A stretch of 58,298 nt of DNA from a virus. Its lineage: Duplodnaviria > Caudoviricetes. The DNA lies in IMG/VR virus record IMGVR_UViG_3300026333_000001, positions 1 to 58,298 of that record; one strand, 5' to 3'. Below are positions 14,318 through 58,288 of the stretch, piece by piece; the first letter of the stretch is position 1, and every line of letters starts with the position of its first letter. The position numbers and the translations under genes are program-made. The notes under the pieces are model-generated. The model was not told the origin of the DNA. It saw only the letters and a list, made by a program, of their open reading frames with translations, and searched no databases.

Positions 14318-14619
14318 TGCCAGTTCGCACGCCGACGCTGGTCGTGTGCGATCGCTCGCGCGTCCATCGGCTGCCCGCACGAATGACAAGCCTTGCCGGG
14401 CGAGTTCTGGCCCGGTCCGAGAATGCCGCGCCGCCGTGCCTCCCTGACCCAGCGGTGCACGGTGCTCACGGGGAGGTCGTTCGCCTCGGCTAGGTGCTTG
14501 GCTGGGTGGTTCTTGCCCCAGATGATGTGCACGAGGGTCCAGCGCGCGGCGACCTGCTCGTAGAAGCCGTCAGGGTACGAACGGCCGGATGGGACGGTGA
14601 GCTTCAGGGTGGTCGTCAT
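14314..14619 (-). CDS. HTH protein with C-terminal CxxC
   Basis: PAKHLAEANDLPVSTVHRWVREARRRG HTH; CHSC. Confidence 0.7.
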   Translation of the reverse strand: MTTTLKLTVPSGRSYPDGFYEQVAARWTLVHIIWGKNHPAKHLAEANDLPVSTVHRWVREARRRGILGPGQNSPGKACHSCGQPMDARAIAHDQRRRANWQ

Positions 14620-14792
14620 CGTGCGCTCCTCACTCCAGGCGCCCGCTTGCGGGTCGGCAACCGCCGGTACCGGACCTTCGGGCCGCCCGGCGTCGCGTGC
14701 GCCTTCTCGTGCGCGTAGCGGCGCAGACGCGGGCTGCTGAAGAAAAGCCTCCATTGACTTCGCGATTTGAACCCCGTGTGACCGCCGGGCAT
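14616..14792 (-). CDS. Small basic protein (58 aa), below the ORF-track cutoff
   Basis: MPGGHTGFKSRSQWRLFFSSPRLRRYAHEKAHATPGGPKVRYRRLPTRKRAPGVRSAR; starts 2 nt after the portal stop, ATGA overlap with the next gene. Confidence 0.7.
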   Translation of the reverse strand: MPGGHTGFKSRSQWRLFFSSPRLRRYAHEKAHATPGGPKVRYRRLPTRKRAPGVRSAR

Positions 14793-14793
14793 G

Positions 14794-16398: not shown

Positions 16399-16847
16399 CA
16401 GGCGGGCCAGCCGAGGTCGCGCCGCATCTGAGCCTTCATCGCCTCACTGATCTGACGCTCGACGATGCCGCCCTGAGCGTAGACGTTCACCATTGGCGAG
16501 TCGTGGCCTCCGATGGCCTCGTAGGTGGCTTCGAAGACGCCGGGGGCGCAGCGGCGGAACTCGCCGTTGGCGTCCTTGACGATCCAGTCGCCCGCCTCGG
16601 CGCGTATTTCGCCGTCAGGTGTAGAGAAGATGATGGTCGGCTCCTCGAAGCTGCCGCCGAACAGGCCGTTGCACCACTTGGCGACGGCGCGGCCCGCCTC
16701 GCCGTCTGCACTCCCGGTGACGCGCACCGCGTCGACCTCCACACGCTTCTGGCGGAAGCGGGTCGCGAGCGTTGAGTTGGCCCGAACCCTCTGGAGTTCC
16801 GCCCACGCCTCGTCGAGGCGCTCGAGCGCGCGATCCAGTTCGTCCAT
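16398..16847 (-). CDS. Conserved phage hypothetical protein (EAVQ...GDWIV...C.P.VF..TYE family)
   Basis: RQKRVEVDAV...TPDGEIRAEAGDWIVKDANGEF..C.PGVFEATYE. Confidence 0.7.
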   Translation of the reverse strand: MDELDRALERLDEAWAELQRVRANSTLATRFRQKRVEVDAVRVTGSADGEAGRAVAKWCNGLFGGSFEEPTIIFSTPDGEIRAEAGDWIVKDANGEFRRCAPGVFEATYEAIGGHDSPMVNVYAQGGIVERQISEAMKAQMRRDLGWPA

Positions 16848-17183
16848 CGGGCCCCCTCGGTTCGGTCACGGTCAGTAGCGCAGGTCGCGAGACGACGGCG
16901 GGAAGTAGGCTTGCCCGCCCGTGCGGGGTGGTGACTTGTCGCAGGTAAGGAGACGGGAGTGCGGAGAGTGACGAACGGCGGTGGTGGCTGCGGCCTGACA
17001 GGTGCTTGACACCGCCACGAGGCGAGTCGCTGACCTGCGCTAACTTGAGCAAGCGCAGCGATAACACGAGGGAACGCGTCCACCTGCGCTGATGGCGTCG
17101 CGGTTTGGTTGCTAATGGTGTTTATGTAAAGCTGGCCTGCTTGCTCTTGCTAGCGGATCGTCACTCTCGGTGCGACGACACGT

Positions 17184-17831
17184 CTACGCCTTGGGCTGAG
17201 CGTGCTGCCAGGTCGCGCCGCACGAACGCGAGCAGAAGCGGGTCTTGGCGTACTTGTTCTTCTTGAACGCATCACCGCAGTTCAGACAGTTGACCTCGAC
17301 CGCGTCGAGCCCCGCAGCACGTCGCCACGCGGACTTGCAGGCGTTGGAGCAGAACCGCTCGTTGCCGGTTGCGCTGCGGGTCAGGAAGCGGACGTCGCAC
17401 TGCTCGCAGTTGTGCTCGGTGTAGGCGCGTCCTTCCCACGTCCGCTTGCCATGCTCTCGATGCCAGGCCCGGCCCTCCTCGGAGCGGTGCCATTCGGCGG
17501 CCTTGGGCCGGACCTCGTCCATAAGCGCCCGTAGCTGCTGGCGTCTCTCCGAAGTCATCGAGGAGCCGTGATGCGCCCGATGGTCTTCACTAGCGATGCA
17601 GGCCAAGTTGGCAAGGTCGTTGTTCAACGTGTCGTGATCAACGTGGTGAACGTTGTGACCACTAGGGATCGGTCCGTTGGCGTCGATCCAGATCTCCTCG
17701 TGGAGCCGCCTTCGGCCCTTCTGGCGGTCGGCGATGCCGGGTACGTAGTACGCCCGTTCGGCCCACGTCTTGGCGTTGGGGTAGCGCCGGTATCGCACGC
17801 CCTTGAATACGATCACATCCACAATGGCCAC
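17184..17831 (-). CDS. Free-standing HNH endonuclease with two C-terminal zinc-finger repeats
   Basis: VHHVDHDTLNNDLANL HNH motif; two CxxC...FCSxxC repeats; probable leaderless GTG start 6 nt after TACAAT (17843-17838). Confidence 0.88.
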   Translation of the reverse strand: MAIVDVIVFKGVRYRRYPNAKTWAERAYYVPGIADRQKGRRRLHEEIWIDANGPIPSGHNVHHVDHDTLNNDLANLACIASEDHRAHHGSSMTSERRQQLRALMDEVRPKAAEWHRSEEGRAWHREHGKRTWEGRAYTEHNCEQCDVRFLTRSATGNERFCSNACKSAWRRAAGLDAVEVNCLNCGDAFKKNKYAKTRFCSRSCGATWQHAQPKA

Positions 17832-17853
17832 ATGGATATTGTATCGGCAAGCA

Positions 17854-19107
17854 TCACGCGGCGTCGGCCGGTCTAAGTTCCGGTCTCCATGCGGCTTCAG
17901 TGGTATGAATAGCGTAGCGCATCGCATCTACACAATGATCGTCGACCTTCACGGGCGCGTCCTCGCCCTTCGCGGCCTTGTCGTCGTCCCAGGAGTAGCC
18001 GGGCAGCTCGTTCAGCAGATTCCGGCACGAACGGTGGATGAACAGCCGGTCCTGCGCGAACAGGCTGGACACGGTGCGGATGCCGTCGAGGACGTCGTTG
18101 TTGCCGAGCGTCGGCGTGAGCTTGTCGCGGTACAGCTGCTGCACGAAGCTCGCGGCGGACGGGTCCACGACCGTCCACTGCGGGCGGATGCCCTTTACGT
18201 CGGTGCCCGGGATCGGTAGGCCGGCGAGCCAGCCACGCAGCCGCTCGGAGTATTCGCTGTCGGTGAGCTGCTTACGCTGGATCTTCGACGACCACCAGTA
18301 CTCGTGGGCGAGGTACAGGCGCCCGTCCGTGCCGACGCCGAGCATCAGGCCCGCGAACGGGTTCGTGGTGCCGTAGTCGATGCCCAGGGCGAGCCAGCGC
18401 CGCATCGGCGGGAGGATGTCGACGACGTGACGGTCCGGGTCGAACATCTCGTAGATGGCGCCTTCGGCCAGGCACCACTCGCCGAGGATGAACCGGCGGT
18501 ACCACAGGCCGGTGTACTCCAGCTTCAGCGAAGCGACGTACTCCGGGTCGAGGGACGGGTTGTCATCGAGGCCGAACCTGAAATGCCGCAGGTCCAGCTC
18601 GGGCGCCCGCAACAGGAAGTCCTGCCGCAGCCAGTGCGCCGGCCCGTCCGGGTTCGTGGTGGCGAACAGCTTCGCGTCCTTGACCGACAGGCGGGCGAGC
18701 ATCTGCTTCCAGAACGGCTCCGGCAGCAGCGTCGCCTCGTCGATGTAGGCGCCGGCCGCCGTGAGACCGCGAAGGCGCCCTTCGGCCTTGACGTCGTTGG
18801 CGGTGATGACCTCAATGGTCTTGCCGAGGATTGTCGCCGTGCCCGCACCGCGGGTGTACTTCACGTGCCTGGCCGCGTCCCCGAACAGCGTCGGGTCCGA
18901 CAGCGGGCTGAACACGTTACGGGCGACGGTGTCGAATGTCTTGCCGGACACCACCAGGTCGCCACCGCGCGGCGGGTCCGCGACGTACATCAGCCAGCGC
19001 AGCAGCGACGCGGTCGTCTTCCCCGACCGCACAGAGCCGTCCCACACGTTGATGCGGGCACCGCTGTGAGCGATCGAGCGCTCCTGCGCCTCACTCAGGA
19101 GGGGCAT
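17854..19107 (-). CDS. terL: Terminase large subunit
   Basis: Walker A GSVRSGKT, Walker B YIDEA, TTNP, GIDYG, VDPSAA, DDH.VDAMRY. Confidence 0.96.
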   Translation of the reverse strand: MPLLSEAQERSIAHSGARINVWDGSVRSGKTTASLLRWLMYVADPPRGGDLVVSGKTFDTVARNVFSPLSDPTLFGDAARHVKYTRGAGTATILGKTIEVITANDVKAEGRLRGLTAAGAYIDEATLLPEPFWKQMLARLSVKDAKLFATTNPDGPAHWLRQDFLLRAPELDLRHFRFGLDDNPSLDPEYVASLKLEYTGLWYRRFILGEWCLAEGAIYEMFDPDRHVVDILPPMRRWLALGIDYGTTNPFAGLMLGVGTDGRLYLAHEYWWSSKIQRKQLTDSEYSERLRGWLAGLPIPGTDVKGIRPQWTVVDPSAASFVQQLYRDKLTPTLGNNDVLDGIRTVSSLFAQDRLFIHRSCRNLLNELPGYSWDDDKAAKGEDAPVKVDDHCVDAMRYAIHTTEAAWRPELRPADAA

Positions 19108-19537
19108 CGCCGTGCTTGGCCTTCAGGTTCCCGAGCAGGTCGCCGAGCAGCGATGCGATTCCCTCGGCGCCGGAGTCGTCGGGTGCGAGCTCGCGGGCCT
19201 TGTCGGCGGCGATACCGAGCACGATCCCACGGGAGTGGAACGAAGTCCGCGCCCACTCCTCATCCGTCATGCGCTCGAACGAGCCGAGTGCCCGCTCGGC
19301 GAGTCCGGCCGCGCGGGACGCGAGAGCGATCAGCCGTGCGCGATGGTCGGCGATGTTGGCGGCGGTGGCTTTCTTTGTGGCTGACCGGTCAAAGGCGTCG
19401 GTCAGTCCGGACTCTCTCGCGATGTTGGTTACGGAGCCGACGGAGACGTCGTGGTCACGGGCGATCTGGTTGCGTGGCTTGCCGTCGCGGATGTCGTCGG
19501 TGATCGCCTGACGCTTGGTGTCGGGGATGCGTGGCAC
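19091..19537 (-). CDS. terS: Terminase small subunit (HTH)
   Basis: N-terminal HTH (RNQIARDHDVSVGSVTNIA); overlaps the terL start. Confidence 0.75.
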   Translation of the reverse strand: MPRIPDTKRQAITDDIRDGKPRNQIARDHDVSVGSVTNIARESGLTDAFDRSATKKATAANIADHRARLIALASRAAGLAERALGSFERMTDEEWARTSFHSRGIVLGIAADKARELAPDDSGAEGIASLLGDLLGNLKAKHGDAPPE

Positions 19538-26090: not shown

Positions 26091-26723
26091 TCATGCGGCT
26101 TTTCCTTTCAACGGCGGATCGTGATCTCTGGGTTTGTCCACAATCGGCGAGGCACGTGATCGGCATTCCAGCTCAGCTAGTCGACTACGGAAACGATCAT
26201 GCTTGTTGGTAGGTGTCTTGTGGTTAGGTGCTTGGTTAGGTGGGCGGTAACCATTACCGGTGTTCTCGGCCTCAGTTACCGGTGTTCTGGCCTCAGTTAC
26301 CGGTGTTCTTGAACCGGTCGCCACCGAACACCGGTTATCGCTACCGGTGTTCGGTGGGTTATCCACAGACTTCTCGTCCCGGTTATCCACAGGCTTCTCG
26401 TCCGGGTCGAGCATCTCCACACGGTCCAAGAGGTCATCGGGAACCGTCAGCCGGTACTCATCCGCCAACCCGCGGCGGCCCATCTTCGACCCCTCGAAGA
26501 CCCGCTCGACCAGACCGAGGTCCCGGAGCCGGTCCAGAGCTTTCCGGACCGTCTTGTCGGACAGTTCGGTGACGGCCACGAGACGCTCGTTTCCCGGCCT
26601 GATCCGCGTGCCGTCGCGGTTGGCGTAGTCGGCCAGCACCGCGGCGACTAGCTTCACCGAGGCGCCGAGTCGGCACCGGCGGATGACCCTGCGCCAACTG
26701 AACGGGTCGATGCCATCCCCCAT
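26091..26723 (-). CDS. Replication initiator (N-terminal winged HTH)
   Basis: ADYAN.DGT.IRPG..RL...TELSDKTVRKAL..LRDLGLVE wHTH; low-complexity C-terminal half encoded by iterons. Confidence 0.8.
   Translation of the reverse strand: MGDGIDPFSWRRVIRRCRLGASVKLVAAVLADYANRDGTRIRPGNERLVAVTELSDKTVRKALDRLRDLGLVERVFEGSKMGRRGLADEYRLTVPDDLLDRVEMLDPDEKPVDNRDEKSVDNPPNTGSDNRCSVATGSRTPVTEARTPVTEAENTGNGYRPPNQAPNHKTPTNKHDRFRSRLAELECRSRASPIVDKPRDHDPPLKGKAA
26134..26404. promoter_or_regulatory. Putative replication origin: iterons, inverted repeat and DnaA boxes
   Basis: TTACCGGTGTTCT at 26254, 26276 and 26297; 15-bp perfect inverted repeat 26321-26335/26343-26357; TTATCCACA at 26359 and 26383; TTGTCCACA at 26134. 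Confidence 0.85.
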
Positions 26724-43069: not shown

Positions 43070-44278
43070 GTGCCCGTGGCCTACATCCGCAAACTGCCGT
43101 CCGGGAAGTACCAGGCCACCGTCCGCATGCCGAACGGCCAGCGCATCACCGAGACCGACCCGCTGAAGAAGGTCGTCAAGAAATGGGCGACCGAGCAGGA
43201 GGCGCGGTTCAACCGCGGCGATCACCGCGACCCGCGCGCCGGCCTGATCAAGTTGGGGGAGTGGCGCCGCCGCGTCTCGGAGAACCGCAGCCTTGAGCTG
43301 ACCACGGTGGCGAAACTCGACACCCTGTGGCGCACCCACTGCGAGGCCCAGTGGGGGCAGTGGCCGATGGCCGCGGTCACGCGCATGGAGGCGCAGGAGT
43401 GGGCGAACCGGCTGCGTACCACACGGCGTGCCCGGCACAAGGGCCGGACCGTGCGCGACCAGGACGAGGACGTGCCGCTACTGAGCGCCGAGACGATTCA
43501 CGCGGCCGTCAACACCATGAGCAAGCTGTACGCCCTCGCGATGCGAGAGAGCCCGCCGCTGGTGGCCGCTAACCCGTTCACAGACCTGGACCTGCCGCCA
43601 ATCGAGCTGCAGCCGATCGAGTTCTATGAGCATGGGGAGGCGGAGCTGCTGTACGCCGCGGTCGAGCAGCGATCCGGCATCGAATGGCGGGCCGCGGTCG
43701 AGCTCGGCATGGACGTCGGGCTGCGGCCAGGTGAGATCTTCGGTCTGCACGCTCCGCTGGTCGACTGGCGCCGCCGGCTGGCGGGGGTGCGGCAGGTGAT
43801 GACCCGCTACGGGCTGCGGGACTACCCCAAGTCCCGCAAGAGCAACCGCACCGTGCCGGTTCCCGAGGCGACGATGGAGCGGATGTCGGTGGCGATGCGG
43901 GGCCGGGACGCGTTCGGGGTGTGCACGTGCCCGAAGGTGCTCGCCGACGGCAGCCGCCTACCCGGCCGGGGCCCGTGCCCGGCGCTGGTCTTCAGGGCGC
44001 CGGAGGGTGGCCCGATCGACGACGGCAACTTCCGCGACCGGGTGTGGAACCCCGCCGTGGAGAAGGCGGGCATCCGCCGGTTCCCGCCGCGGATCATGCG
44101 TCACACTGCGGCGTCGTGGCTCGTGCAGGACGGGGTGCCGCTCTATGATGTGCAGGCGCTGCTCGGCCACGAGTCATATGCGACCACGCAGCGGTACGCG
44201 AGTCTCGCGCCGGACGCCCACGACAAGGTGATCGAGTCGTGGCAGCGACGCACCCGACAAGATCTCTCCGGTTCTTGA
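43070..44278 (+). CDS. int: Tyrosine integrase
   Basis: GLRPGE, PKS, RIMRHT, LLGH, TQRY; N-terminal arm-binding domain. Confidence 0.96.
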   Translation: MPVAYIRKLPSGKYQATVRMPNGQRITETDPLKKVVKKWATEQEARFNRGDHRDPRAGLIKLGEWRRRVSENRSLELTTVAKLDTLWRTHCEAQWGQWPMAAVTRMEAQEWANRLRTTRRARHKGRTVRDQDEDVPLLSAETIHAAVNTMSKLYALAMRESPPLVAANPFTDLDLPPIELQPIEFYEHGEAELLYAAVEQRSGIEWRAAVELGMDVGLRPGEIFGLHAPLVDWRRRLAGVRQVMTRYGLRDYPKSRKSNRTVPVPEATMERMSVAMRGRDAFGVCTCPKVLADGSRLPGRGPCPALVFRAPEGGPIDDGNFRDRVWNPAVEKAGIRRFPPRIMRHTAASWLVQDGVPLYDVQALLGHESYATTQRYASLAPDAHDKVIESWQRRTRQDLSGS

Positions 44279-44504
44279 CGCACCGGTGACGCATGGACCA
44301 GAAAGGCCCGCTCCCGATGATCTCGGAAACGGGCCGTTGACCAGGAGGTGGGCCCGGGTGGACTTGAACCACCGACCTCATCCTTATCAGGGATGGAAGA
44401 GCCGCAGGTCAGGGGACCGACATGTCTCTGACCAGCCAGAATTTGTCCAAGAGTGTCAGGACAGTCCACCCGTGTTGGGTGGTCGTGACGCACGGGTGAC
44501 GCAC
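44276..44504 (+). repeat. Integrase arm-type sites flanking the att core
   Basis: TGACGCA(C/T) pairs at 44276/44287 and 44486/44497, both 11 bp apart. Confidence 0.75.
44347..44395 (-). other. attP: attP core: 3' half of tRNA-Ile(GAT)
   Basis: Minus strand CATCC-CTGATAA-GGATG-AGGTC-GGTGGTTCAAGTCCACC-CGGGCCCACC gives anticodon arm, T arm and acceptor 3' strand; no D arm or 5' half. Confidence 0.9.
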
Positions 44505-44652: not shown

Positions 44653-44847
44653 CTACTCGGCTGGTGGCCGCTTCGGGAGCGTGACGCCTTTCTCGCGCAG
44701 CCACCAGCGCCACAACCGGACGGTCAGCGCGGACAGGTCCCCGTGGCCCGAAGCCTTGGCGCTCTCACGGACGGCATCGGCGAGTTCCTTGGTCCCGCCG
44801 CGAACGCCGACGACGTGAGGGTTCTTGTGCCGGTCGCCGTCTGCCAT
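44653..44847 (-). CDS. Small ribbon-helix-helix-like repressor (Kor-like)
   Basis: HKNPHVVGVRG..KELADAVRE.A...G..DLSALTVRLWRWWLRE.G..LP.RP; divergent from the transfer operon. Confidence 0.7.
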   Translation of the reverse strand: MADGDRHKNPHVVGVRGGTKELADAVRESAKASGHGDLSALTVRLWRWWLREKGVTLPKRPPAE

Positions 44848-44863
44848 GCAACATCTCCCGAAA

Positions 44864-44922
44864 GTGGTTAACCACCCGGCTTGTGTGTGCATCGTATCAG
44901 GCGTACGCTAGTGGTTAACCAC
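44864..44922 (+). promoter_or_regulatory. Transfer-operon promoter bracketed by two 12-bp palindromic operators
   Basis: GTGGTTAACCAC at 44864-44875 and 44911-44922; TTGTGT(44881)-N17-TACGCT(44904) between them. Confidence 0.8.
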
Positions 44923-44942
44923 AAGAGGGCGAGGAGAACGCC

Positions 44943-45140
44943 ATGATCAGCGAATGCGACGAGGTCAACGAGCACACGCCGCGCGACAGCGGTTGGGGCG
45001 TGCTCGGCGGTCTCGCCGTCATGTTCGTCTGCGCCGTGATCGCGGGCGCCGCGGTCGTGTTCGCCGGACCCATCGTCGTGCACGCCATCACCGCTCTCGC
45101 CGCCGCCGCATGGCACGGCACCGCTCGGCTGCTGTCGTGA
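44943..45140 (+). CDS. Small membrane protein (Spd-like by position)
   Basis: 65 aa, long hydrophobic segment, AGGAG RBS. Confidence 0.65.
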   Translation: MISECDEVNEHTPRDSGWGVLGGLAVMFVCAVIAGAAVVFAGPIVVHAITALAAAAWHGTARLLS

Positions 45141-45325
45141 GGCACCCGCCCCCGCCCGAACGCCAGCGGATCTTCGACCGGGCATTCTGGCTCGACGCAG
45201 CGGTCCTCTTCGCCGCGTTCCTCATCGTCGCCGTGGGGACGGTCATCTCCGACCACCGTCCGCTGCATCTCAAAGTCCCCGTGACCAGCTCGACCACCAC
45301 GCCGAATGTGGCTGCCACGCCATAA
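45137..45325 (+). CDS. Small membrane protein
   Basis: GTGA overlap; FWLDAAVLFAAFLIVAVGTVI TM segment. Confidence 0.6.
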   Translation: MRHPPPPERQRIFDRAFWLDAAVLFAAFLIVAVGTVISDHRPLHLKVPVTSSTTTPNVAATP

Positions 45326-45358
45326 CCCGACCGGACCCAACTATCCAGAAGGAATCCC

Positions 45359-45637
45359 ATGAACAAGACGCAGTTCGTCGATGCCGTCGCTGAGCGCATC
45401 GGCGACAGGAAGGCCGACGGCGTGGCCGTCGACGCCGTCCTGGAGACCATCCGAGACACCGTGGCCGCCGGCGAGAAGGTCGCCCTCACCGGCTTCGGAT
45501 CGTTCGAGAGGGTCACCCGGCCCGCACGCGACGCCCGCAACCCGGCCACCGGCGCGACCATCCACGTCCCGGCGACGGCCGTGCCGAAGTTCAAGGCGGG
45601 TGCCGATTTCAAGGCGCGCGTCGCGGCGGGGGCATAG
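45359..45637 (+). CDS. hup: HU-family DNA-binding protein
   Basis: MNKTQFVDAVA...GEKVALTGFGSFE...AR..RNPATG..I.VPA..VPKFKAG..FK. Confidence 0.95.
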   Translation: MNKTQFVDAVAERIGDRKADGVAVDAVLETIRDTVAAGEKVALTGFGSFERVTRPARDARNPATGATIHVPATAVPKFKAGADFKARVAAGA

Positions 45638-45658
45638 CGCGTCGACCGCGCGAAAGAC

Positions 45659-45695
45659 GTCGCCCGGTCCGCGACCTAACCGCGGACCGGGCGGC
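45659..45695 (+). terminator. Strong hairpin between the HU and DUF2637 genes
   Basis: CGCCCGGTCCGCG-N7-CGCGGACCGGGCG. Confidence 0.65.
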
Positions 45696-45723
45696 TTGAT
45701 CGGACTACTGAGGAGTCCAACCC

Positions 45724-46506
45724 GTGACCGAACCTACCCACCCGGGCGAGGAGAGCCCCCGCACGGGCCGCCCCGTCACCGTGGCCGCCGCGGGCGCCGA
45801 CGAGGAGCCGGAGCGGTGGCCGGTGGATGCCGACCGGCTCGTCCGGTGGTCGACGATCGTCGTCGTCGTCCTCGTCGCGCTCGCCGCCGCCTATGTCTCC
45901 TACCGCCACGCGTACGAGCTCATCCACGACCACGGCGAGTCTGGTACGGCGGCGCGCATCGGCCCGGCCACGGTGGACGGGCTGATCTACGCGTCGGGGA
46001 TGGTGCTGTTGCAGGCCGCCCGCTACCGGCAGGCCGCGCCGCCTCTCGCGTACTTCGGGCTGTGGCTGGGGATCGCGGCGACCGTCGGCGCGAACGTGGC
46101 GCACGGATGGTCCCACGGCGTGCTCGGTGCGCTGGTCAGCGCGTGGCCCGCGGTGGCGCTGATCGTCTCCTACGAACTGCTGATGAAGATCATCCGTGTT
46201 GGAGCGGCACGCGGCGCCGAGCCCGGTCCGGACGAGCGGGCCGCCACCGGGGACGCCTGCCCGCACGGTGTGGCGGCGACGGTGCAGGAGGCCGTCGTCA
46301 ACGCGTGGCTGCACGCCCGTGACTGCCTCGGTGAGGAGCTATCGCAGCGCCAGCTCGCCACCGACTTTGATGTGAAGGACCGCAAGAAGATCAAGACGTG
46401 GCTCGATGCGGCGGCGCCGAAGACCGCACCAGTCGTGTTGGAGCCGCCCGCGGCGCCTTCAGCCCAGGAGGAAGCGCCAGCACTGAACGGTGGGCCGCCA
46501 GCATGA
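45724..46506 (+). CDS. DUF2637 / SpdA-like multi-pass membrane protein with C-terminal HTH-like segment
   Basis: AAYVSY.H...L...HGE......P..VDGLI..S...AT..ANVAHG...G..GA.VSAWP..ALI.SYELL. Confidence 0.85.
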   Translation: MTEPTHPGEESPRTGRPVTVAAAGADEEPERWPVDADRLVRWSTIVVVVLVALAAAYVSYRHAYELIHDHGESGTAARIGPATVDGLIYASGMVLLQAARYRQAAPPLAYFGLWLGIAATVGANVAHGWSHGVLGALVSAWPAVALIVSYELLMKIIRVGAARGAEPGPDERAATGDACPHGVAATVQEAVVNAWLHARDCLGEELSQRQLATDFDVKDRKKIKTWLDAAAPKTAPVVLEPPAAPSAQEEAPALNGGPPA

Positions 46507-48629
46507 GCGAGTCGGAGCGGCGCCCGGACGACGAGCGCCCGCTGCGCGCCGTCCCCGACGCCGTCGAGGAGCCCGACGACGAGCCGGGGCGGGAGGTCGC
46601 GGTACGCGACGAGACCGCCCCGGCCGCCATGGAACAGGACGAGCCGCTCGACGGTGTGGTCCTCGTCGAGGAGCGGGAGCTGCCGGCGCTGTTGCCGCCC
46701 TGGGCGACGAGCGCGGCAAGCATCCGCGCGTACGCCGTGTGGCGGGCACGCTGGTCGGGGCACATGCTTGCGTTCCACGCCATCCGCACCCCGCTGTACG
46801 CCGTCCGTGTCGTCGTACGCGGCGTCGTTGGCACCGCCCGTGGCGTACGGGCGCTGGTCGCGTGGGTCTTCGATTGGCAGGCACAGCCGCTTCGCCGTGC
46901 GGCCGTGGAGGGCACCGAGTACCGGGAGTATCTCGCGCTGGTCCATATCCGCAACGACTACGTCCGCATCCGCGGGATCGTGGCCGGCGCCAGCCTCCTG
47001 GCCGTCGGCGTCGGTGTGGCCATCGAGGTGGCGACGTTCCCGGCCGCCCTGGTCCTCGAAGCCCTGCTAGGGCTGGCCGTCGCCGCGTGGTGGGGTGGCC
47101 CCGGCGAGCAGGCCGGCCTGTTCGATTCCCCGGACCTGCCGGTGCGGCTCGACCTGAACGAACAGCATCTCAACGGTGCGTTCCGCGCCGCGGGCCTGCT
47201 CAAAGGCAAGGACGAAGACGACGACGCGCCGCAGCTCCTGATGGTCCGGCCGCCGATGCGTGACCAGAACGGCTGGTCGGCCGTGATGGACCTGCCCCGC
47301 GGTGGCGGCAAGACCGCCAAGGACGCCCTGGGCAAGCGGGACGTCATCGCCGCCGAGCTGGGTGTCGATGAGATCCAGCTCGACCTGCGGCGGGTGCGTG
47401 CCGTGCACGGCGGGCATGCGGGGCGGATCTCGCTGTGGGCGTGCGACGACGACCCATACCTACAGGAAGAACCAACCCCGTCGGTACTCGCCGACATGGA
47501 AACCTTCGATATCTGGCAGCCCGTACCCTTCGGGCGCGATGCCCGTCGCAACCGCGTCGACCTGCCGCTGATGTGGCAGTCCATGTTCTTCGGTGGCCTG
47601 CCGCGGCGCGGAAAGTCGGCGTCGCAGCGACTCCCGTCGGCCGCCGCCGCCCTCGACGCGCACGTGCGGCACTACGTCGCCGACGGCAAGGGCGGTGGGG
47701 ACTGGCTGCCGATGCGGCAACTCGCGCACCGGCTCGTCCTCGGCGCCGAACTCGATGCCGTGGCCGCGCTCGAAGACATGCTGGACGAGGTCATCGAGGA
47801 GATGGAGTCCGCATACCGGGTCATCCGCAAGATCCCGGCGCGGGTCGCACCGGACGCCAAACTCACCCCGCAGATCCAGCGCCGCTACAACCTGCCGATC
47901 TCCTTCGTGACCATCGATGAGCTGCAGGAATATCTCACGGCGATCAGCGAGACCAAGCGGCGGGAGGCGCTGATCGACCGGCTGTGCCGCATCTCCCGCC
48001 GCGGCCCTGCCGCCGGTTACATCTCGAACTTCGCGTCCCAGCGCCCGGACGCCGACAGTGTGCCGGCGCGACTCCGGGAGATCGTCACGTACCGGTACTG
48101 CACGCAGGTCATCGACCGCACGAGCTCGGACATGGTGCTCGGCAAGGGCAAGGCGTCCCAGGGCGCGGATGCTTCCGTGCTGGCCGAGGAGCACGTCGGG
48201 GTGGGGGTGCTGGTGACCAGCGCGGCGAACTTCACGACCGTCCTGTGCGACTACCTTGACCTGCCGGGCTTCACCGCCGTCTGCGCGCGCGGGCGCGTGC
48301 TGCGGGAGCAGGCCGGGACACTGACCGGCGACGCCGCCGACGATGTGCTGGCCCGCGCGGAGGCTCAGATCATCCCGCAGGTGCTCGCGGACGCGCTCAC
48401 GCTGATGCGGCATGTAGAGCGGATCCACAGCTTCGACCTGCTGAACAGGCTCGTCAACCTGGACCAGGGCAGCTACGGGAACTGGTCTGTGGAACGCCTC
48501 GCGGACGAGCTCGCCGATGCAGGGGTGGAGCGCACGACCCGGCAGGTCAAGATCGACGGCCGGAACTTGAACGGCTATCACCGCTCCGATCTGGAGGCCG
48601 CCGCCGAGCAGTACGAGCGGCCGTCATGA
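46503..48629 (+). CDS. traB: FtsK/SpoIIIE-family TraB-like conjugative DNA translocase
   Basis: 708 aa; N-terminal TM pair, Walker A GGLPRRGKS, DGKGG.D, Walker B TIDELQE, ASQRP, SDMVLG; C-terminal wHTH-like domain ending GY.R.DL. Confidence 0.88.
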   Translation: MSESERRPDDERPLRAVPDAVEEPDDEPGREVAVRDETAPAAMEQDEPLDGVVLVEERELPALLPPWATSAASIRAYAVWRARWSGHMLAFHAIRTPLYAVRVVVRGVVGTARGVRALVAWVFDWQAQPLRRAAVEGTEYREYLALVHIRNDYVRIRGIVAGASLLAVGVGVAIEVATFPAALVLEALLGLAVAAWWGGPGEQAGLFDSPDLPVRLDLNEQHLNGAFRAAGLLKGKDEDDDAPQLLMVRPPMRDQNGWSAVMDLPRGGGKTAKDALGKRDVIAAELGVDEIQLDLRRVRAVHGGHAGRISLWACDDDPYLQEEPTPSVLADMETFDIWQPVPFGRDARRNRVDLPLMWQSMFFGGLPRRGKSASQRLPSAAAALDAHVRHYVADGKGGGDWLPMRQLAHRLVLGAELDAVAALEDMLDEVIEEMESAYRVIRKIPARVAPDAKLTPQIQRRYNLPISFVTIDELQEYLTAISETKRREALIDRLCRISRRGPAAGYISNFASQRPDADSVPARLREIVTYRYCTQVIDRTSSDMVLGKGKASQGADASVLAEEHVGVGVLVTSAANFTTVLCDYLDLPGFTAVCARGRVLREQAGTLTGDAADDVLARAEAQIIPQVLADALTLMRHVERIHSFDLLNRLVNLDQGSYGNWSVERLADELADAGVERTTRQVKIDGRNLNGYHRSDLEAAAEQYERPS

Positions 48630-48646
48630 CCCCCCGGAACCGGCCC

Positions 48647-48775
48647 GTAGAGGCACGGGAGCGGCCCGCCGTGCACCCCCTCTACCGGGGTCTACCTCGC
48701 AGGTCAGCGGCCACCTACCGGCCCCCTCTACCCGGTAGGCGCTCCCCTCTACGGCGGGGGTCGCGGGTAGAGGGG
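48647..48775. repeat. clt-like repeat cluster directly downstream of traB
   Basis: CCCCTCTAC at 48677, 48723 and 48744; inverted GTAGAGGGG at 48767; partial copies at 48647, 48691, 48714 and 48734. Confidence 0.75.
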
Positions 48776-48808
48776 TCAACCACCATCCACGGCAAGGAGA
48801 CGATCACC

Positions 48809-49162
48809 ATGCCCCCAGCCAAACGCGGGACGCCCGCGGGCAAGACCAAGACGCATGTCCGCGCCCACGCTCGCACCACCGCCGCGGGCCGATCGGTCCG
48901 GGTTCGCTCGCACAGCCGTACGGTCACCGCCTGGCAGCAGGCCGGGATCGCCTGGGCGGGCACGGCCGCGACCGGCGCCACCACCCTCGCCCTCGTCGTC
49001 GAGCTCGGCCTGACGCTGATCTCCGCAGTGCTGATGCTGGTGACCGCGCTGGTTGGCGCGCTGGCCGTCGCGGCGACGGCGAAGGCATCGAAGCCGCGAC
49101 GCAGGATGCGCGCCAGGACGCGAGGTCGCCGGCGCCCGACAGGACGAGGGAGACGGCGATGA
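48809..49162 (+). CDS. Basic membrane protein (Spd-like by position)
   Basis: AAGGAG RBS; HVRAHAR...VRVRSHSR motif, two hydrophobic segments, Arg-rich tail. Confidence 0.7.
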   Translation: MPPAKRGTPAGKTKTHVRAHARTTAAGRSVRVRSHSRTVTAWQQAGIAWAGTAATGATTLALVVELGLTLISAVLMLVTALVGALAVAATAKASKPRRRMRARTRGRRRPTGRGRRR

Positions 49163-49365
49163 CGACCCTGATCCTCGGCGTCATCATCGCCGCCATCCTC
49201 TACCGCATCAGCCTGGCGATCTGGCCGTACACCGCGTGCCGGGGCTGCTCCGGCGAGGGCACGAACGCCGGCAGCAACCGCAAGCGCTGGGGCAACTGCC
49301 GTCGCTGCGGCGGATCCGGGCAGAAGCTGCGCCTCGGCACCCGACTACTCGTCCGCCGTCGATGA
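49159..49365 (+). CDS. Small membrane-anchored DnaJ-type zinc-finger protein
   Basis: TM segment then CRGCSGEG...CRRCGGSG. Confidence 0.8.
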   Translation: MTTLILGVIIAAILYRISLAIWPYTACRGCSGEGTNAGSNRKRWGNCRRCGGSGQKLRLGTRLLVRRR

Positions 49366-49389
49366 CCGTACTCTCGATACGACGAGGAG

Positions 49390-49424
49390 GCCCCGCCGGT
49401 CGTGATGACCGTGCGGGGCGTTTT
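49390..49424 (+). terminator. Rho-independent terminator ending the transfer operon
   Basis: GCCCCGCCGGTC-N5-GACCGTGCGGGGC-GTTTT. Confidence 0.75.
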
Positions 49425-49516
49425 GGTGTTGAGATGACTACCTGAGGTAACTCGGTCCTGTCCTTGACCGCCCTTCCCGCCCGGGCTGACGCTCGCAGAT
49501 GGGAGGAGGTGGCATC

Positions 49517-53769: not shown

Positions 53770-54114
53770 CTACGCGCGAGCCCTGGCCTTCCCCTGTACG
53801 GGCGAGACGTTCTGCCGCAGCAGCAGCGCCAGCACAATGGACAGCGCCGTCACGGTCGCGCCGATCTGGTCGCCGGACAGGTGCAGCCCGAACGCCGCCA
53901 CGGCGCTCAGCAGCGACGCCACGGCCGCGGTGACGGTCGAGACGACCACCGGGCGGGTCATGGCCGCGGTCGCGATCGTCAGCACCGCCGTGGCGATGAC
54001 GGTGACGGCCGCGGTCTGGTCGTGGGATAGGGGCAGGCCGAACGAGACGAACAGCGCGACCGCCGCGTTGAGCGCGTACAGCAGCGTCGCCGGTTCGTAG
54101 CCGAAGATCTTCAA
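53770..54114 (-). CDS. Holin-like membrane protein
   Basis: 114 aa, about four hydrophobic segments in two repeats; MKIFGYEP...RQNVSPV. Confidence 0.75.
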   Translation of the reverse strand: MKIFGYEPATLLYALNAAVALFVSFGLPLSHDQTAAVTVIATAVLTIATAAMTRPVVVSTVTAAVASLLSAVAAFGLHLSGDQIGATVTALSIVLALLLRQNVSPVQGKARARA

Positions 54115-54180
54115 TAGAGGTCTCCTTACATTCTCGGCCGCCGATGTGAAGCCGTCGGCGGTCCGCTTGAAAAGCGCTGG

Positions 54181-54876
54181 TCAGGTGGTGACTCGCCGGA
54201 CACTCCGGCCGAGCTCGTGCCGTTTGGCGGCGACGTAGCGCCGGTTGGCGTGCTCGCCGAACTGCTGATCCTCGGTGCCGTCCGGGAAGCGGCGGACGAC
54301 GTAGCCGCCCGGCGCGAGCGTGAACGGTTTCAGCTCACCGGGCATCCAGTGGGTGCGGGTGTCCGGCACGTCGTACCAGCCGGGCGTCACGAAGTCGGAG
54401 ACGGCCACGCCGTCGATCAGGTAGGAGTCGCCCTCGACTGGGTCACACGCCTCGTAGGCGACCTCGTAGCCGCTGCCGGTGTCCTTCCAGACGTCGACGT
54501 GCGGGTCGACGAACGTCTCGACGATCTCGTGGCTTTCCGTGGTGCTCACGGGCACGCCGTACTCCAGGCATGGGCGCACGAAGATCCGCCCGTAGATCCG
54601 GCCGTACCGGTCGATCGAGTGGTAGCCGAGCGCCCCGGCCTGGTCGGCGTCGTCGAGCACGACCAGCACCCAGGCGCCGCGCGGCGCGTGCGAGGTCTTG
54701 GACAGGAACTGCACGCGGACCGGCTTCAGGCCGTACGCGGGTGCGACGTGCTCGCGGATTTGGCGGGCGCACGCCGCCGTCCACCGCTTCACGTCCTCGT
54801 CGGTGACGAGGGTCGACCGGTTGACGACGTAGATGCCGGTCTTGGGTCGTGAGACCCGCAGCAGCTTGCAGGACAT
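54181..54876 (-). CDS. Putative zincin-like metallopeptidase
   Basis: GALGYH...SHEIVETFVDP...YEACDPVE...VSDFVTP.WY. Confidence 0.6.
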   Translation of the reverse strand: MSCKLLRVSRPKTGIYVVNRSTLVTDEDVKRWTAACARQIREHVAPAYGLKPVRVQFLSKTSHAPRGAWVLVVLDDADQAGALGYHSIDRYGRIYGRIFVRPCLEYGVPVSTTESHEIVETFVDPHVDVWKDTGSGYEVAYEACDPVEGDSYLIDGVAVSDFVTPGWYDVPDTRTHWMPGELKPFTLAPGGYVVRRFPDGTEDQQFGEHANRRYVAAKRHELGRSVRRVTT

Positions 54877-54879
54877 GGC

Positions 54880-55929
54880 TTAGCTCATGTCCCAGCCGAC
54901 GGGGTCCGTGCCGTCGTCGAGGCGGGTCAGGCTGACCCAGTCGCCGTCGGCCGGGGTCTTGAACGCCTGCACCGTCTTGCGCGGCCACGAGTCCGTGGTC
55001 GAGGCGGGGCCGCCGACCTTCAGGTCGTAGACCTCCCCGGAACCGGCCTTGTGGTGAAACGCCACCCGCACCTCGGCGGGCTTCGGGTTGTCGTAGACCA
55101 GGCCGATGGCCTTCTCCGCGCCGTGCGGGAAGGAGATGTTGGCCTTGGCGCCTTTACCCGCCGGGAGCTGTCCGCCGTAGGGCATGTCTTCCTCCTGAGG
55201 AGTGGGTGAGGGTGTGGGCTGCGGGACGGGCGCGTGCCCGCCGTGGGCGAGCTGGTCGAGGGGTAGCCACGACACCGATGCGTCGAGGCCGTTGAAGTTG
55301 TCGGTGAACTGCCAGATGTGCGGCCGGGACCAGCCAGTCGTGTTCACCGACGGCAGCGACGGCGTGAAGTTCGGCGGCCACAGCGAGGCGGCCCGCGCGA
55401 TCGGCACCTTCCGCGGTGCGTCGGCGCTGCGCGGGTGGATGCCGCGGGCCCGCATCGCCAGGTGCCGCACGCGGGCCAACAGGTACTTACTCGGATACTG
55501 CGGGAACCACCACAGGTTGAAATGCTGCGACAGGTCCCGGCCGGTGTTGTTGGCGACGTAGCCGCGGCCGAGGTAGGCGCCGGTCGCCAGCCAGTCCGCC
55601 TCGGACCACAGCTCATCACCGAAGTCGCGAGCCCACCGGTTCGTGTCGGCCTGGTTCAGCTTTGAGGCTTCGAGGTCGAGCCAGGCGACCTCGCCCCGCA
55701 CCGGCTGTACGACGTCGAGGAAGCGGCGACACTGGGACTTCGCGCTGGATTGTTCCGGCCGGGCGAAGTGGTAAGCGCCGCGGACCTTCGCCCTGCTCTT
55801 GGCGCTCGCGTACTGCGCACCGAACTTCGAGGACGTGTACCCGCTGCCCTCGGTCGCCTTGATGAAGTCGAAGTCGCCACTCGGCGCCGTGGCGCCCTGG
55901 AACGCGCTCACATCGAAGCCGTGCAGCAT
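54880..55929 (-). CDS. Endolysin, GH25 muramidase
   Basis: GFDVSAFQG, FIKATEG, GAYHFARP, WLDLE, IWQFT. Confidence 0.92.
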   Translation of the reverse strand: MLHGFDVSAFQGATAPSGDFDFIKATEGSGYTSSKFGAQYASAKSRAKVRGAYHFARPEQSSAKSQCRRFLDVVQPVRGEVAWLDLEASKLNQADTNRWARDFGDELWSEADWLATGAYLGRGYVANNTGRDLSQHFNLWWFPQYPSKYLLARVRHLAMRARGIHPRSADAPRKVPIARAASLWPPNFTPSLPSVNTTGWSRPHIWQFTDNFNGLDASVSWLPLDQLAHGGHAPVPQPTPSPTPQEEDMPYGGQLPAGKGAKANISFPHGAEKAIGLVYDNPKPAEVRVAFHHKAGSGEVYDLKVGGPASTTDSWPRKTVQAFKTPADGDWVSLTRLDDGTDPVGWDMS

Positions 55930-56165
55930 CACACACCCCTCCAATACGGCGAATCGCCGCCCGTCCAGAAGCCGTGGATCCCGCAGTTGCCGCAGAGGAT
56001 CGACGGTGTCAGGCCGCCGTCGGCAGTCCACTGCCAGCCCTGCGAGCCGAGCGGCAGCGTCACGCGGCCCACCGGGTCGAACTCCGGCGGTTTGGCCGGG
56101 CAGTGGTGCACCCAGACCGGGTGCCCGTCCTCGTCACGTTCGACGTGCGGCTCAACGGTCGCCAT
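55929..56165 (-). CDS. DUF6527-like small Cys/His protein
   Basis: HHCP...LTPSILCGNCGIHGFW..G...W. Confidence 0.65.
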   Translation of the reverse strand: MATVEPHVERDEDGHPVWVHHCPAKPPEFDPVGRVTLPLGSQGWQWTADGGLTPSILCGNCGIHGFWTGGDSPYWRGV

Positions 56166-56168
56166 CGT

Positions 56169-56693
56169 TCAGCCCATCCAGCAGGAGTCGCCGACGCGCA
56201 CGACGGGCGTCGGAGTGGGGGGCGGCGCCGGGACGGCAGGCCAGGCCGGGTCGCCGTAGCCGAGCACGTCGCTCTTGTTGCGGGTGCGGGTCGCGCACTG
56301 CCCGCCGAGGGTGTTGAACTCGACGGTCGTGATGGTGCCGTTGCCGTTGTCCTTCAGGCACGCCCCGACGTGCTCAGGGTCGCCGGAGCGGTTGAAGTCG
56401 AAGAACACGATCCGCCCGCGCGCGGCCGTCTTCGAGGAGCGGCCGATCTTCTTCCAGTGCTGCCACCACGACGGCACCCACGCCCACGCCTTGTCCACCC
56501 CGCCGAGCACGGCGAGCTGGCCGGTCTGGTCGGCGCACCACAGCAGACCCATGGCGCAGAAGTCACCGTCGTCGTAGGCGGGGCTGTGGACCTGGTCGCC
56601 GAACCACGTCCCGTACTTCGTGCTGCCGTCGGCGTGCACGCAGCGGCCGCGCTGGGACAGGGCCATGGTCAGGAACGCCTCGCGTCCGCTCAT
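56169..56693 (-). CDS. CHAP-domain peptidoglycan hydrolase
   Basis: TKYG.WFG...FCAMGL.WC...IVFFD.....EHVG.....TVEFNT...VLGYG.P.W. Confidence 0.85.
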   Translation of the reverse strand: MSGREAFLTMALSQRGRCVHADGSTKYGTWFGDQVHSPAYDDGDFCAMGLLWCADQTGQLAVLGGVDKAWAWVPSWWQHWKKIGRSSKTAARGRIVFFDFNRSGDPEHVGACLKDNGNGTITTVEFNTLGGQCATRTRNKSDVLGYGDPAWPAVPAPPPTPTPVVRVGDSCWMG

Positions 56694-56707
56694 CTGGAAC
56701 CCCACCC

Positions 56708-56881
56708 CTACCTGAGCGTGGTCTGGTAGGGGCGCCCCTTGTCCGCGCCGGGCTGGTTCTCCAGCTTGGTGCAGTGTCGTGAAGCACCCCGGTTCGTGTA
56801 GAAGTGCCCGTGCTCACTCACCACGGTGCCGGTACGGCAGTCGACCCGGATGACCTTCAGCTTCGAGAATGGTTTGTTCAT
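56708..56881 (-). CDS. Small hypothetical protein (57 aa)
   Basis: MNKPFSKLKVIRVDC...; AGGAGG RBS. Confidence 0.55.
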   Translation of the reverse strand: MNKPFSKLKVIRVDCRTGTVVSEHGHFYTNRGASRHCTKLENQPGADKGRPYQTTLR

Positions 56882-56897
56882 GTGGAACCTCCTACGG

Positions 56898-57410
56898 TCA
56901 TTGGTCGGCGGTGCAGATCACGGCGTCCCGCGGGCCGTCGCCGGTCACCACCGTGGTGTGTGTCGCGTGGAAGCCATCAGGGCAGGCCGGGCCGGGAGCG
57001 CCGTCTTTGCCGTCGGTGCCGTCTTTGCCGTCCGCACCATCGGCGCCCGGCGGTCCCGCAGGACCGGCAGGGCCGGATGGTCCTGGAGGACCGGTCGGCC
57101 CCGCCATGCCCGGCCGCCCGCTGGTACCCGACGGCCCCGACGGTCCGGGTGACCCCGAGCGGCCAGGGTTGCCGGGGTTGCCGGGGGCGCCGGGCGGGCC
57201 AGGGTTTCCCGTCGGGCCCGGCAGCGGTGACACCTTCGGGACGATGTTGTGGTCACGCAACTGCTTGGCGAGGGTCTGGTTGTCCCGCCGCGCCTGCCCG
57301 AGCCGCTGGCCCAGGTTCTGCAACTGCAGGTACATCAGGCCGAGCAGCGCGGCGACGACGACGGCGAACAGCAGGGCAGGCAGATACACCGGAGGGCGGA
57401 AACGTCTCAT
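56898..57410 (-). CDS. Membrane-anchored collagen-like (Gly-X-Y) protein
   Basis: N-terminal TM, coiled coil, long GPxGPx repeat, C-terminal CP.G....C. Confidence 0.85.
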
Positions 57411-57730
57411 GGGGTGCCCTTGCTTCGCAGGTACGAGCTGATCAGCAGCAGGAACAGGGGCGCGATGATCGAGGTGAACAACGCCGCCCAGATCATGCGG
57501 CGGTCGCTGGCCCGCTGTTGTTTGTCGGTCTTGCGTTCGGCCCTGATCTCGCTGATGTCCTTCTCGTGCTCCTCGTGGCGGCTGCGGTCGGCTTCGAGGT
57601 GCGCGTTGAACAGGTCCACTGAGACGTGCTTGTCCAGGCGCTGGTTGAGGCCCTTGAACCCCTCGCGCATGTCCTCGCGGATCGCGGCGAGGGTGCGCTG
57701 CAGCTCCCACGGGGAAGGCTCATCGGCCAC
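57407..57730 (-). CDS. Coiled-coil protein with C-terminal TM (lysis-associated)
   Basis: EPSPWEL.R.L...REDMR.GF...; [20 protein letters not shown]. Confidence 0.75.
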
Positions 57731-58288
57731 TCAGACCCCCATCCACACGATCTCGATGCGGGACTGCGCCCCGGCGGTGGTCTGCCAGGTCAGGTTCGCG
57801 GCCGGTTCGCTGGACAGGAACACGTCGATGCTGATCTGGTCGCCGACGTTGAGGTACGCCTCCCAGAAGCCGGAGACGGCTTTCGGGTCCGCGGCGCCGG
57901 TCGGGATGAAGACCTCCGGGCCTTCCCAGCCTGCTGTGCCGAAGCCGGTCGGGGATGCGCCGTTCACGGCCAGGGCGGGGATCAGGATGGTGTTCGCGGC
58001 GCCGGTCCCTGCCACGGACGCGGTCGCGCAGATGGCGTACCAGCCGGGCGCCTGCACCGTGTAGACCGTGGGGGTCCCGCCCGACCATCCGGCGTAGGGG
58101 TCCTCATCGACGGTGTCCCAGGGGATGAGGGTGTGCGCGTTCTTGGTGACGGTGCCGGTCGCGGCGCGTCTGGCCCGGAAGACGGACTTGGCGAGCAGGA
58201 ACTGCAGCGCCTGCGCCATGACGTTGAGCTGCGGCGTGGACTGTACGCCCGGGTAGAACACCGGCACGGCCGGGGGCTGCAGGCTCAT
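57731..58288 (-). CDS. Minor tail protein, paralogous to the repeats in 3..1256
   Basis: IPWDTVDED.Y.GW.....YTVQAPGWY.I.A...LNVGD.I.I...WMG. Confidence 0.7.
   Translation of the reverse strand: MSLQPPAVPVFYPGVQSTPQLNVMAQALQFLLAKSVFRARRAATGTVTKNAHTLIPWDTVDEDPYAGWSGGTPTVYTVQAPGWYAICATASVAGTGAANTILIPALAVNGASPTGFGTAGWEGPEVFIPTGAADPKAVSGFWEAYLNVGDQISIDVFLSSEPAANLTWQTTAGAQSRIEIVWMGV

Follow-up and report, generated by a model that had tools for sequence, protein, structure and literature searches.

The viral record IMGVR_UViG_3300026333_000001 (58,298 bp; "the window" below means this whole stretch of DNA) holds a transfer operon placed between its sole integrase and attP on one side and its lysis genes on the other (Table 1). 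At the center of the operon is a gene for TraB, an FtsK-like translocase of double-stranded DNA (dsDNA). TraB is reported to suffice on its own for transfer, to bind 8-bp clt repeats, to resemble FtsK and to form a Kil-Kor pair with TraR (PMC4447253). Upstream of it lie a small divergent regulator, two palindromes, two small membrane genes, an HU/IHF-type gene and a DUF2637 gene; downstream are a repeat cluster, two further membrane genes and a terminator-like hairpin. An earlier sequence-only reading of this DNA had described such a unit immediately beyond attP and free of frameshifts, and this inventory holds. Integrase, attP core and operon follow one another at the places it gave, and every open reading frame (ORF) of the operon is intact. 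Starts and stops overlap at 45137-45140, 46503-46506 and 49159-49162, an arrangement also described for plasmid tra operons (PMC4447253). Judged from its sequence, the module is a bona fide TraB-clt unit.

Table 1. Positions of the features discussed, in window coordinates
Feature	Position	Strand	Basis or remarks
Whole record	58,298 bp		Classed linear in IMG/VR, no end repeats; CheckV completeness 100%
Virion operon	3..19537	-	Pfam and PHROG matches
Minor tail genes	3-1256, 1253-4195	-	Pfam/PHROG
Tape measure	4196-6664	-	Pfam/PHROG
Tail tube	7614-9083	-	Pfam/PHROG
Major capsid protein (MCP)	10772-11791	-	phrog_212, 5e-62
Scaffold	11806-12567	-	Pfam/PHROG
Minor capsid	13289-14389	-	Pfam/PHROG
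Portal, SPP1-type	14794-16398	-	phrog_533, 4e-121
TerL	17854-19107	-	phrog_2, 1.5e-45
Possible small terminase	19091-19537	-	phrog_5536, a family of unknown function
Phage O-like replication initiator	26091..26723	-	phrog_270, 9.2e-14
WhiB-like gene	29043-29480		Early region
HNH	35254-35796		Early region
ERF	36849-37520		Early region
Antirepressor	40641-41441		Early region
Tyrosine integrase	43070..44278	+	PF00589, 6.7e-21
attP core	44347..44399	-	Like a tRNA 3' half, anticodon stem to acceptor end
Small divergent regulator	44653..44847 (ORF extends to 44892)	-	ORF; 64 aa from inner ATG
Two perfect 12-bp palindromes, GTGGTTAACCAC	44864-44875, 44911-44922		Between the divergent genes, 47 bp start to start
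Small membrane gene	44943-45140	+	65 aa; one hydrophobic segment
Small membrane gene	45137-45325	+	62 aa; one hydrophobic segment
HU/IHF-type DNA-bending protein	45359..45637	+	PF00216, 2.8e-25
DUF2637 membrane protein	45724..46506	+	260 aa; 5.7e-15; two hydrophobic segments
TraB, FtsK-like dsDNA translocase	46503..48629	+	708 aa; BLASTP, tree, motifs, model
clt-like repeat cluster	48647..48774		CCCTCTAC, three direct and one inverted; 7-of-8 inverted copy at 48647-48654
Small membrane gene	48809-49162	+	117 aa, basic; two hydrophobic segments
Small membrane gene	49159-49365	+	68 aa; one hydrophobic segment, CxxC...CxxC
Terminator-like hairpin and U-run	49382..49430	+	-34.4 kcal/mol, z -4.18
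Rest of virion operon, across the record ends	53770..58288	-
Holin	53770-54114	-
GH25 lysin	54880-56031	-
CHAP lysin	56169-56705	-
Tail gene	57731-58288	-

In the TraB protein, membrane segments at about residues 154-194 are followed by a motor (about 330-600) and a helical C-terminal domain (626-702); the Walker A (GLPRRGKS, residue 365) and Walker B (FVTIDE, residue 468) motifs are both in place. Family searches give faint signals: Pfam PF01580 (FtsK_SpoIIIE) scores 19.8 bits, under its cut-off of 24, and a sequence search of the PDB returns only FtsK and TcpA, at E ~0.02. BLASTP aligns the protein with TraB of pSVH1 at 32% identity over 482 aa (E 4e-50), covering the membrane segment and motor and leaving out the C-terminus. 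By tblastn, it matches 112 plasmid records, 70 of them from Streptomyces, including pSVH1 (5e-43) and a 12,207-bp S. viridosporus plasmid (3e-35) that we take to be pSG5. The motor of an AlphaFold model (32 sequences; mean predicted local distance difference test [pLDDT] 78.6) best matches FtsK (6t8o, E 1.4e-13), with TcpA next and EccC further away.

A motor-domain tree places the window protein and pSVH1 TraB on one side of a branch with a support of 100 in the Shimodaira-Hasegawa-like approximate likelihood ratio test, apart from FtsK and EccC-like proteins. Among its 23 rows, FtsK and six EccC-like domains taken from a single Streptomyces genome (L069) serve as outsiders; the EccC-like ORFs are 1348-1504 aa long with two PF01580 domains, from which their name is inferred, and type IV coupling proteins were left out. 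Because the ATPase groups with pSVH1 TraB in this comparison, the phylogeny gives no ground for placing it outside the TraB clades. The gene is under purifying selection, with a ratio of nonsynonymous to synonymous substitution rates (dN/dS) of 0.10-0.24 in eight of 10 pairs.

The C-terminus had been read as a winged helix-turn-helix. In the model it forms helices at 626-672 and short strands at 683-693, a secondary structure compatible with that fold; it does not align with the C-terminus of pSVH1 TraB, and the assignment is not confirmed as it was worded. The same region (about 620-708) weakly matches DUF3631 (E 0.009), the family to which RepAM belongs. Binding to 8-bp repeats is reported for RepAM (PMC2440964), and the DNA-reading domains of the two proteins may be related.

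Just after the traB stop, the word CCCTCTAC occurs four times within 97 bp (48678-48774), out of five occurrences in the window, where 0.88 would be expected. The layout matches that of our positive control, pSVH1, in which GACCCGGA, which we take to be the clt 8-mer of that plasmid, stands in four direct copies and one inverted copy within ~100 bp after the traB stop. We assembled 99 TraB loci, made up of 16 IMG/VR records, 80 genome loci, 2 plasmids and the window itself; sufficient sequence beyond traB was present in 98. Within the 330 nt surrounding the stop, the core CCTCTAC is present at least twice in 75 of these 98 and at least three times in 36, against a background of 0.04 per 330 nt. 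Most of the remaining loci carry close variants, such as CCGCTACC or CCTTTACC. A noncoding word retained at one position across proteins that are only 50-60% identical has the look expected of a recognition site. The repeats bear out the earlier description of an intact TraB-clt-type unit.

The regulatory end of the operon fits that description in part. The divergent ORF, taken earlier for a ribbon-helix-helix repressor, is present, and its fold was not recovered: it has no Pfam or NCBIfam match, a low-confidence single-sequence model (pLDDT 62) shows only an extended N-terminal part and two helices, and an atlas search returned unnamed clusters and a DUF3950 lead of low shared-feature count. 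The protein is possibly ribbon-helix-helix-like. The two GTGGTTAACCAC palindromes, found exactly twice in the window against 0.02 expected, are taken to be putative operators; the promoter proposed beside them did not appear in a sigma-70 scan.

The remaining small genes gave few family assignments. NCBIfam offered no family for TraB, the DUF2637 protein or the small genes, and Rfam gave only chance-level matches across 44000-50500. The DUF2637 gene recurs near TraB in five of the 16 IMG/VR relatives (E<=0.01), four of them above the family cut-off. Its earlier label, SpdA-like, is not confirmed: SpdB2 of pSVH1 has no DUF2637 match, and we could not tie DUF2637 to any Spd protein. Among the last two membrane genes there is a weak DnaJ zinc-finger match, and BLASTP finds no likeness between the 68-aa zinc-ribbon protein and the "RRQRL motif" protein encoded after TraB on plasmid NZ_CP107886. 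The terminator hairpin escaped a simple scan with a loop limit of 8. Besides TraB, the module proteins had no BLASTP match at 1e-3 in the other TraB loci, as represented by a crude ORF caller that missed genes, including that for DUF2637.

The integrase is the only PF00589 match in the record, and the attP core is present in a single copy in the window. Its anticodon loop, read as CUGAUAA, would be that of Ile-GAU. ARAGORN found no whole tRNA gene in the window, and there are no long direct repeats. The sequence-only reading had the phage's own Int, Xis and Rep supply an excised circle. Int is there, as is a phage O-like initiator. Xis was not recognized: the ORFs at 41906-42349 and 42425-43045 have no matches. 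The DUF2637 protein matches phrog_733, which is annotated as an excisionase. There is no AICE-type Rep (AICE, actinomycete integrative and conjugative element), in that Prim-Pol is absent and DUF3631 appears only as the weak match inside TraB; the O-like initiator was the sole one found with models that did not include RepSA. No AAA_31 match, the one ParA model tried, was found in the window. Lacking a ParA-type gene and Prim-Pol, the window is neither a plasmid-prophage nor a strict AICE. We also considered a nested AICE with its own att pair, and rejected it on the single att core and single integrase.

The DNA around the module is that of a phage. TerL, portal, MCP, tail and lysis genes, together with an integrase and attP, make it a temperate tailed phage, and an early region with a Gam-like gene adds replication functions, so the earlier description of a complete virion-encoding phage stands. 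Among complete relatives, the closest is G017, which is 59,862 bp long, ends in direct terminal repeats and has an MCP 83%, a portal 61% and a TerL 55% identical to those of the window. In it, the homologs of 3-1256 and 57731-58288, which lie at opposite ends of the window, are neighbors 20 bp apart. Because the window ends fall between two tail genes that are adjacent in this relative, the record is a circular permutation of a free phage and not an integrated provirus; an integrated provirus with the module outside it was rejected because the record ends fall within the tail cluster. At 58.3 kb, the window is not oversize next to the 59.9 kb of G017. By its gene content and the position of its ends, then, the window is a complete, non-integrated, circularly permuted temperate siphophage genome in its free (attP) form.

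The portal of this phage is less than 50% identical to that of any deposited phage; megablast of 40000-52000 against deposited phages gave no match, and with 1-25000 a 257-bp terminase match was all that the plasmids yielded. The closest named relatives of its TraB are from Actinoallomurus, Actinomadura and Spirillospora (63-74% identity), and in a tree of TraB proteins it groups with an Actinomadura contig. The host is probably a mycelial actinomycete within the Streptosporangiales, a likelier setting than Streptomyces.

An integrated counterpart of the window is found in the 45,662-bp record G005, whose TerL (50% identity), portal (50%), MCP (43%), Int (53-54%) and TraB (51%) are all related by BLASTP to those of the window. 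An exact 45-bp repeat of a tRNA end lies at 1-45 and 45193-45237, with no third copy, and marks an integrated prophage. The integrase occupies one end and the TraB operon, whose divergent regulator is of the GntR/UTRA kind, the opposite one. With the virion genes between them, this is the order expected if the window circle integrates at its attP. A second relative, G016 (64,431 bp; 174-bp end overlap), carries a TerL (phrog_9, 1.9e-67), an HK97-type MCP, RecT and TraB. It also encodes two 467-aa integrases, at 2690-4093 and 7964-9367 (L022).

The record comes from a metagenome, IMG/VR classes it as linear without end repeats, and tandem elements at tRNA sites are common. Indeed, directly beyond attR of G005, the stretch 45238-45662 (L021) holds an ORF on the reverse strand which by eye resembles the end of a further integrase gene and hints at tandem elements. 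One could therefore suspect that the assembly is chimeric, or that a prophage and a separate AICE are adjacent here. We regard such an artefact as very improbable. Two soil-metagenome runs from two studies contain 99-100% of the sampled words of 41500-51400, although either may be the source of the record, which leaves at most one of them independent. Logan contigs, made with another assembler, tile 38300-58298 in the two runs without differences. In one run (X2), a single 2897-nt contig (42834-45730) bridges integrase, attP and module. In both, a ~12.6-kb contig extends from DUF2637 across TraB, repeats, regulators, holin and lysins as far as the tail genes at the window end, which the contig of the other run (X1) overruns by 75 nt. 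Depth is flat, at ~9x and ~7.5x, except at the att core, where 31-mers of 44347-44379 reach 322-420x in soil runs against ~9x for the phage and are shared with tRNA genes of other organisms. A further run (X3) holds only a small share, in short low-depth pieces.

The arrangement itself also speaks against an artefact. The integrase and the module lie on opposite sides of an intact attP; att core and integrase are each present once; the record ends lie inside the tail gene cluster rather than at att; and the linkage recurs independently in G005 and G016. The module belongs to the same molecule as the phage, and both the anatomy and the linkage are real.

We then asked how often TraB and virion genes occur together. 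A pattern scan of IMG/VR recovered 16 records with a TraB relative (50-61% identity), 12 of which have a virion gene (G005, G007 and G011 being counted by similarity to window proteins). TerL of phrog_2 is found in seven of the 16, a PF04860 portal in five and a PF05065 MCP in three. The phage backbones that bear TraB are of at least three kinds: one with an SPP1-type portal, one with a PF04860 portal and HK97-type MCP, and that of G016. No virion gene was detected in the other four of these "viral" records (G001, G002, G003 and G009), the first three of which are 14-18 kb long and resemble plain AICEs. Among the 80 genome loci, a panel of 19 virion proteins matched three within 10-kb flanks (L068, L073 and L123), and a closer look at eight loci added L100 and L108. 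At least five of the 80 are thus phage-linked, and most have AICE-like contexts. In L073, TerL starts 2.3 kb after TraB. A TraB tree of 98 rows (L130 was too short to include) follows host taxonomy; phage-linked rows require at least four to five changes on it, and one 13-row clade holds nine of them.

The module has clear counterparts in known systems. With the TraB-clt plasmids (pSVH1, pIJ101 and pSG5), it shares a homologous pump of the same clade, 8-bp repeats directly after traB, and an operon plan in which a divergent repressor gene, short genes that overlap and a membrane-protein gene precede traB. Unlike those of the plasmids, it is housed in a 58-kb phage that has a complete set of virion and lysis genes, and its regulator is a 64-aa protein rather than a GntR protein. 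It also differs from pSVH1 in its repeat word, in TraB's C-terminal portion and in a DUF2637 protein that SpdB2 does not match.

AICEs such as pSAM2, SLP1 and pMEA300 are alike in having a tyrosine integrase beside an att in a tRNA 3' end, an FtsK-like Tra and, in the circular form, attP between int and the transfer genes. The window is several times larger, encodes virions and has a phage O-like initiator. AICEs have been defined by Int, Rep and Tra, with prophages set aside (PMC3218068).

Elements that are both phage and something else have been described in actinomycetes and beyond. The Streptomyces plasmid-phage pZL12 (phiZL12) is credited with both a tra locus and a plasmid/lytic phage cycle (PMC3583192), and is described as a 90-kb autonomous plasmid with ParA/ParB (PMC4487206). 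The window resembles it as an actinomycete element of double nature with a tra locus; set against the description of pZL12, it has an integrase and attP and no ParA-type gene. PhiNon1 of Nonomuraea gerenzanensis (59,257 bp, 70% GC) is described as found both circular and integrated in a tRNA 3' end (PMC5431353) and is likewise an actinomycete element of double nature. Further afield, a "conjugative phage-plasmid" of E. coli, p1002-1, is reported as a fusion of a conjugative plasmid with a phage-plasmid (10.1101/2025.03.14.643293), and the term "conjugative prophage" is in print for Phi1207.3 of Streptococcus pyogenes (PMC4260502). In both, as reported, a phage genome is joined to or credited with a conjugative route; the window differs from p1002-1 in its one-protein FtsK-type double-strand pump and its filamentous host. 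The sequence-only reading knew of no characterized lifestyle of this sort, which is too strong in view of pZL12 and of these two terms. For TraB-clt modules inside integrating tailed phages in particular, we found no description in the limited collection of literature searched.

Some Streptomyces plasmids of 88-93 kb (L137, NZ_CP109440.1; H68-H71) have a portal 45-47% identical to that of the window and also carry ParA, ERF, WhiB and lysis genes. They look like phage-plasmids of the size of pZL12, and one of 88 kb that was tested has no FtsK-family gene.

On balance, we favor as the most likely reading that the phage carries an AICE/plasmid-type transfer module that moves its DNA between hyphae. 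The recurrence and conservation of the module in phage genomes argue that it is used. In the mechanism we propose, the 64-aa regulator would bind the two GTGGTTAACCAC palindromes and hold the operon off. Once repression is lifted, TraB would form an FtsK-like membrane ring and read the CCCTCTAC repeats, acting as clt, through its C-terminal domain. The pump would then move dsDNA carrying clt in cis, either the excised phage circle or the prophage with adjoining chromosome. This DNA would enter a touching hypha and cross its cross-walls, perhaps aided by the small membrane proteins and the DUF2637 protein, and Int would integrate it at the tRNA site. That DNA is transferred, which DNA this is and what the accessory genes do are all things that we infer.

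Several observations weigh against a module that serves the phage in this way. TraB has no match at E 1e-3 in 50,697 deposited phage genomes. Four of the seven phrog_2 TerL matches noted above are weak, at only ~1e-8, and in G015, a 111-kb provirus record, TraB and TerL are 45 kb apart, a distance that makes it a weak case and perhaps one of mere neighborhood. For the window traB, the pairs with L057 and G015 give a higher dN/dS of 0.39 and 0.44, with the synonymous rate near saturation. A GntR-type repressor (TraR/KorA) is absent from the module by Pfam and NCBIfam, its place being taken by the 64-aa ORF and the palindromes; GntR is the type that forms the Kil-Kor pair in plasmids. No Spd homolog was recognized. 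Transfer of a whole phage also risks induction in the recipient. Finally, the otherwise close relative G017 has no TraB, no FtsK-family gene and no tyrosine integrase (L139-L141); the int-attP-tra block is thus accessory and dispensable for the phage.

The origin of the block bears on this last point. Most simply, it would have been taken from an AICE, and the phage might use only Int and attP from what it acquired by recombination. The tra genes would then be a leftover, or would mobilize only the host chromosome, and the phage genome would not be moved. The joint absence of integrase and TraB from G017, where both are missing as one accessory block, fits this explanation, and the changes required by phage-linked rows of the TraB tree suggest repeated exchange with AICEs. 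At least 75 of the 80 genome loci, moreover, have no virion gene of the panel used within 10 kb. We nevertheless think it unlikely that the tra genes are such a passenger. The operon is unbroken and its starts and stops are coupled, clt has been retained, and traB is under purifying selection in phage-linked pairs. The window and G005 preserve the int-attP-tra layout at ~50% protein identity, and the composition of the block is unremarkable (GC 0.68-0.71, within the 0.64-0.72 seen across the window).

Another explanation grants the module a use, and gives it a different job in the phage cycle. The pump might move the infecting or induced phage genome only across the cross-walls of the same mycelium, or push a copy into spore compartments, or act in kil/exclusion. 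TraB is reported to work with Spd proteins in spreading through the recipient mycelium, and unregulated traB to be toxic (PMC4447253); the module stands under a tight-looking repressor of its own. Nothing in the sequence separates spreading from mating, and all characterized members of the clade, in the same account, act in conjugation (PMC4447253). We judge a job of this kind, exclusive of transfer between mycelia, to be rather improbable.

Extending the preferred reading, in which the module transfers phage DNA between hyphae, we tentatively suggest something broader, to which we give somewhat less than even credence: temperate phages of mycelial actinomycetes may repeatedly recruit TraB-clt to pass from hypha to hypha and through cross-walls with no need for virions or receptors. 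Such a path, which is non-lytic, would be their second means of transmission, by which one infection could lysogenize a whole mycelium, and it would have arisen on several unrelated backbones. Should the pump move the phage, the virus would spread in two ways, as particles and by direct passage of DNA between hyphae. Views of host range, receptor resistance and lysogeny in filamentous bacteria would change accordingly. The idea also bears on how a phage copes with a compartmented mycelium. The boundary between phages and AICEs, treated by current classifiers as two separate categories, becomes less sharp with this module. Related prophages occur in cultured strains (a Nonomuraea, L100; a Streptomyces, L073; and S. 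toyocaensis, L108), which makes the hypothesis directly testable, and the predicted TraB/clt pair, with CCCTCTAC as a new recognition word, is ready for DNA-binding studies.

Other features of the window and of the loci surveyed deserve mention. The early region has three DNA methyltransferase genes, at 27231-28436, 29611-30579 and 34550-35257 (one MT-A70 and two N6_N4_Mtase), a trio that suggests broad protection against restriction. Between the transfer module and the holin lies a WhiJ-type cluster (49499-51886). It comprises an XRE/DUF5753 regulator (50375-51217, minus strand), a HATPase_c_2 anti-sigma-like gene (51386-51886) and two tiny ORFs, at 49499-49648 (plus) and 50268-50363 (minus), that look DUF397-like by eye. 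Homologs of the XRE/DUF5753 regulator are found near TraB in L057, L100 and G015.

Two of the database entries call for care. The 29,140-bp "plasmid" NZ_CP107886.1 (L002) consists of two identical 14.57-kb copies, with Prim-Pol, GntR, TraB and recombinase, and is either a dimer or an assembly duplication. The 11.85-Mb replicon of Nonomuraea gerenzanensis filed as "plasmid I" (NZ_LT559118.1, L055), with 10 annotated features, is evidently the chromosome.

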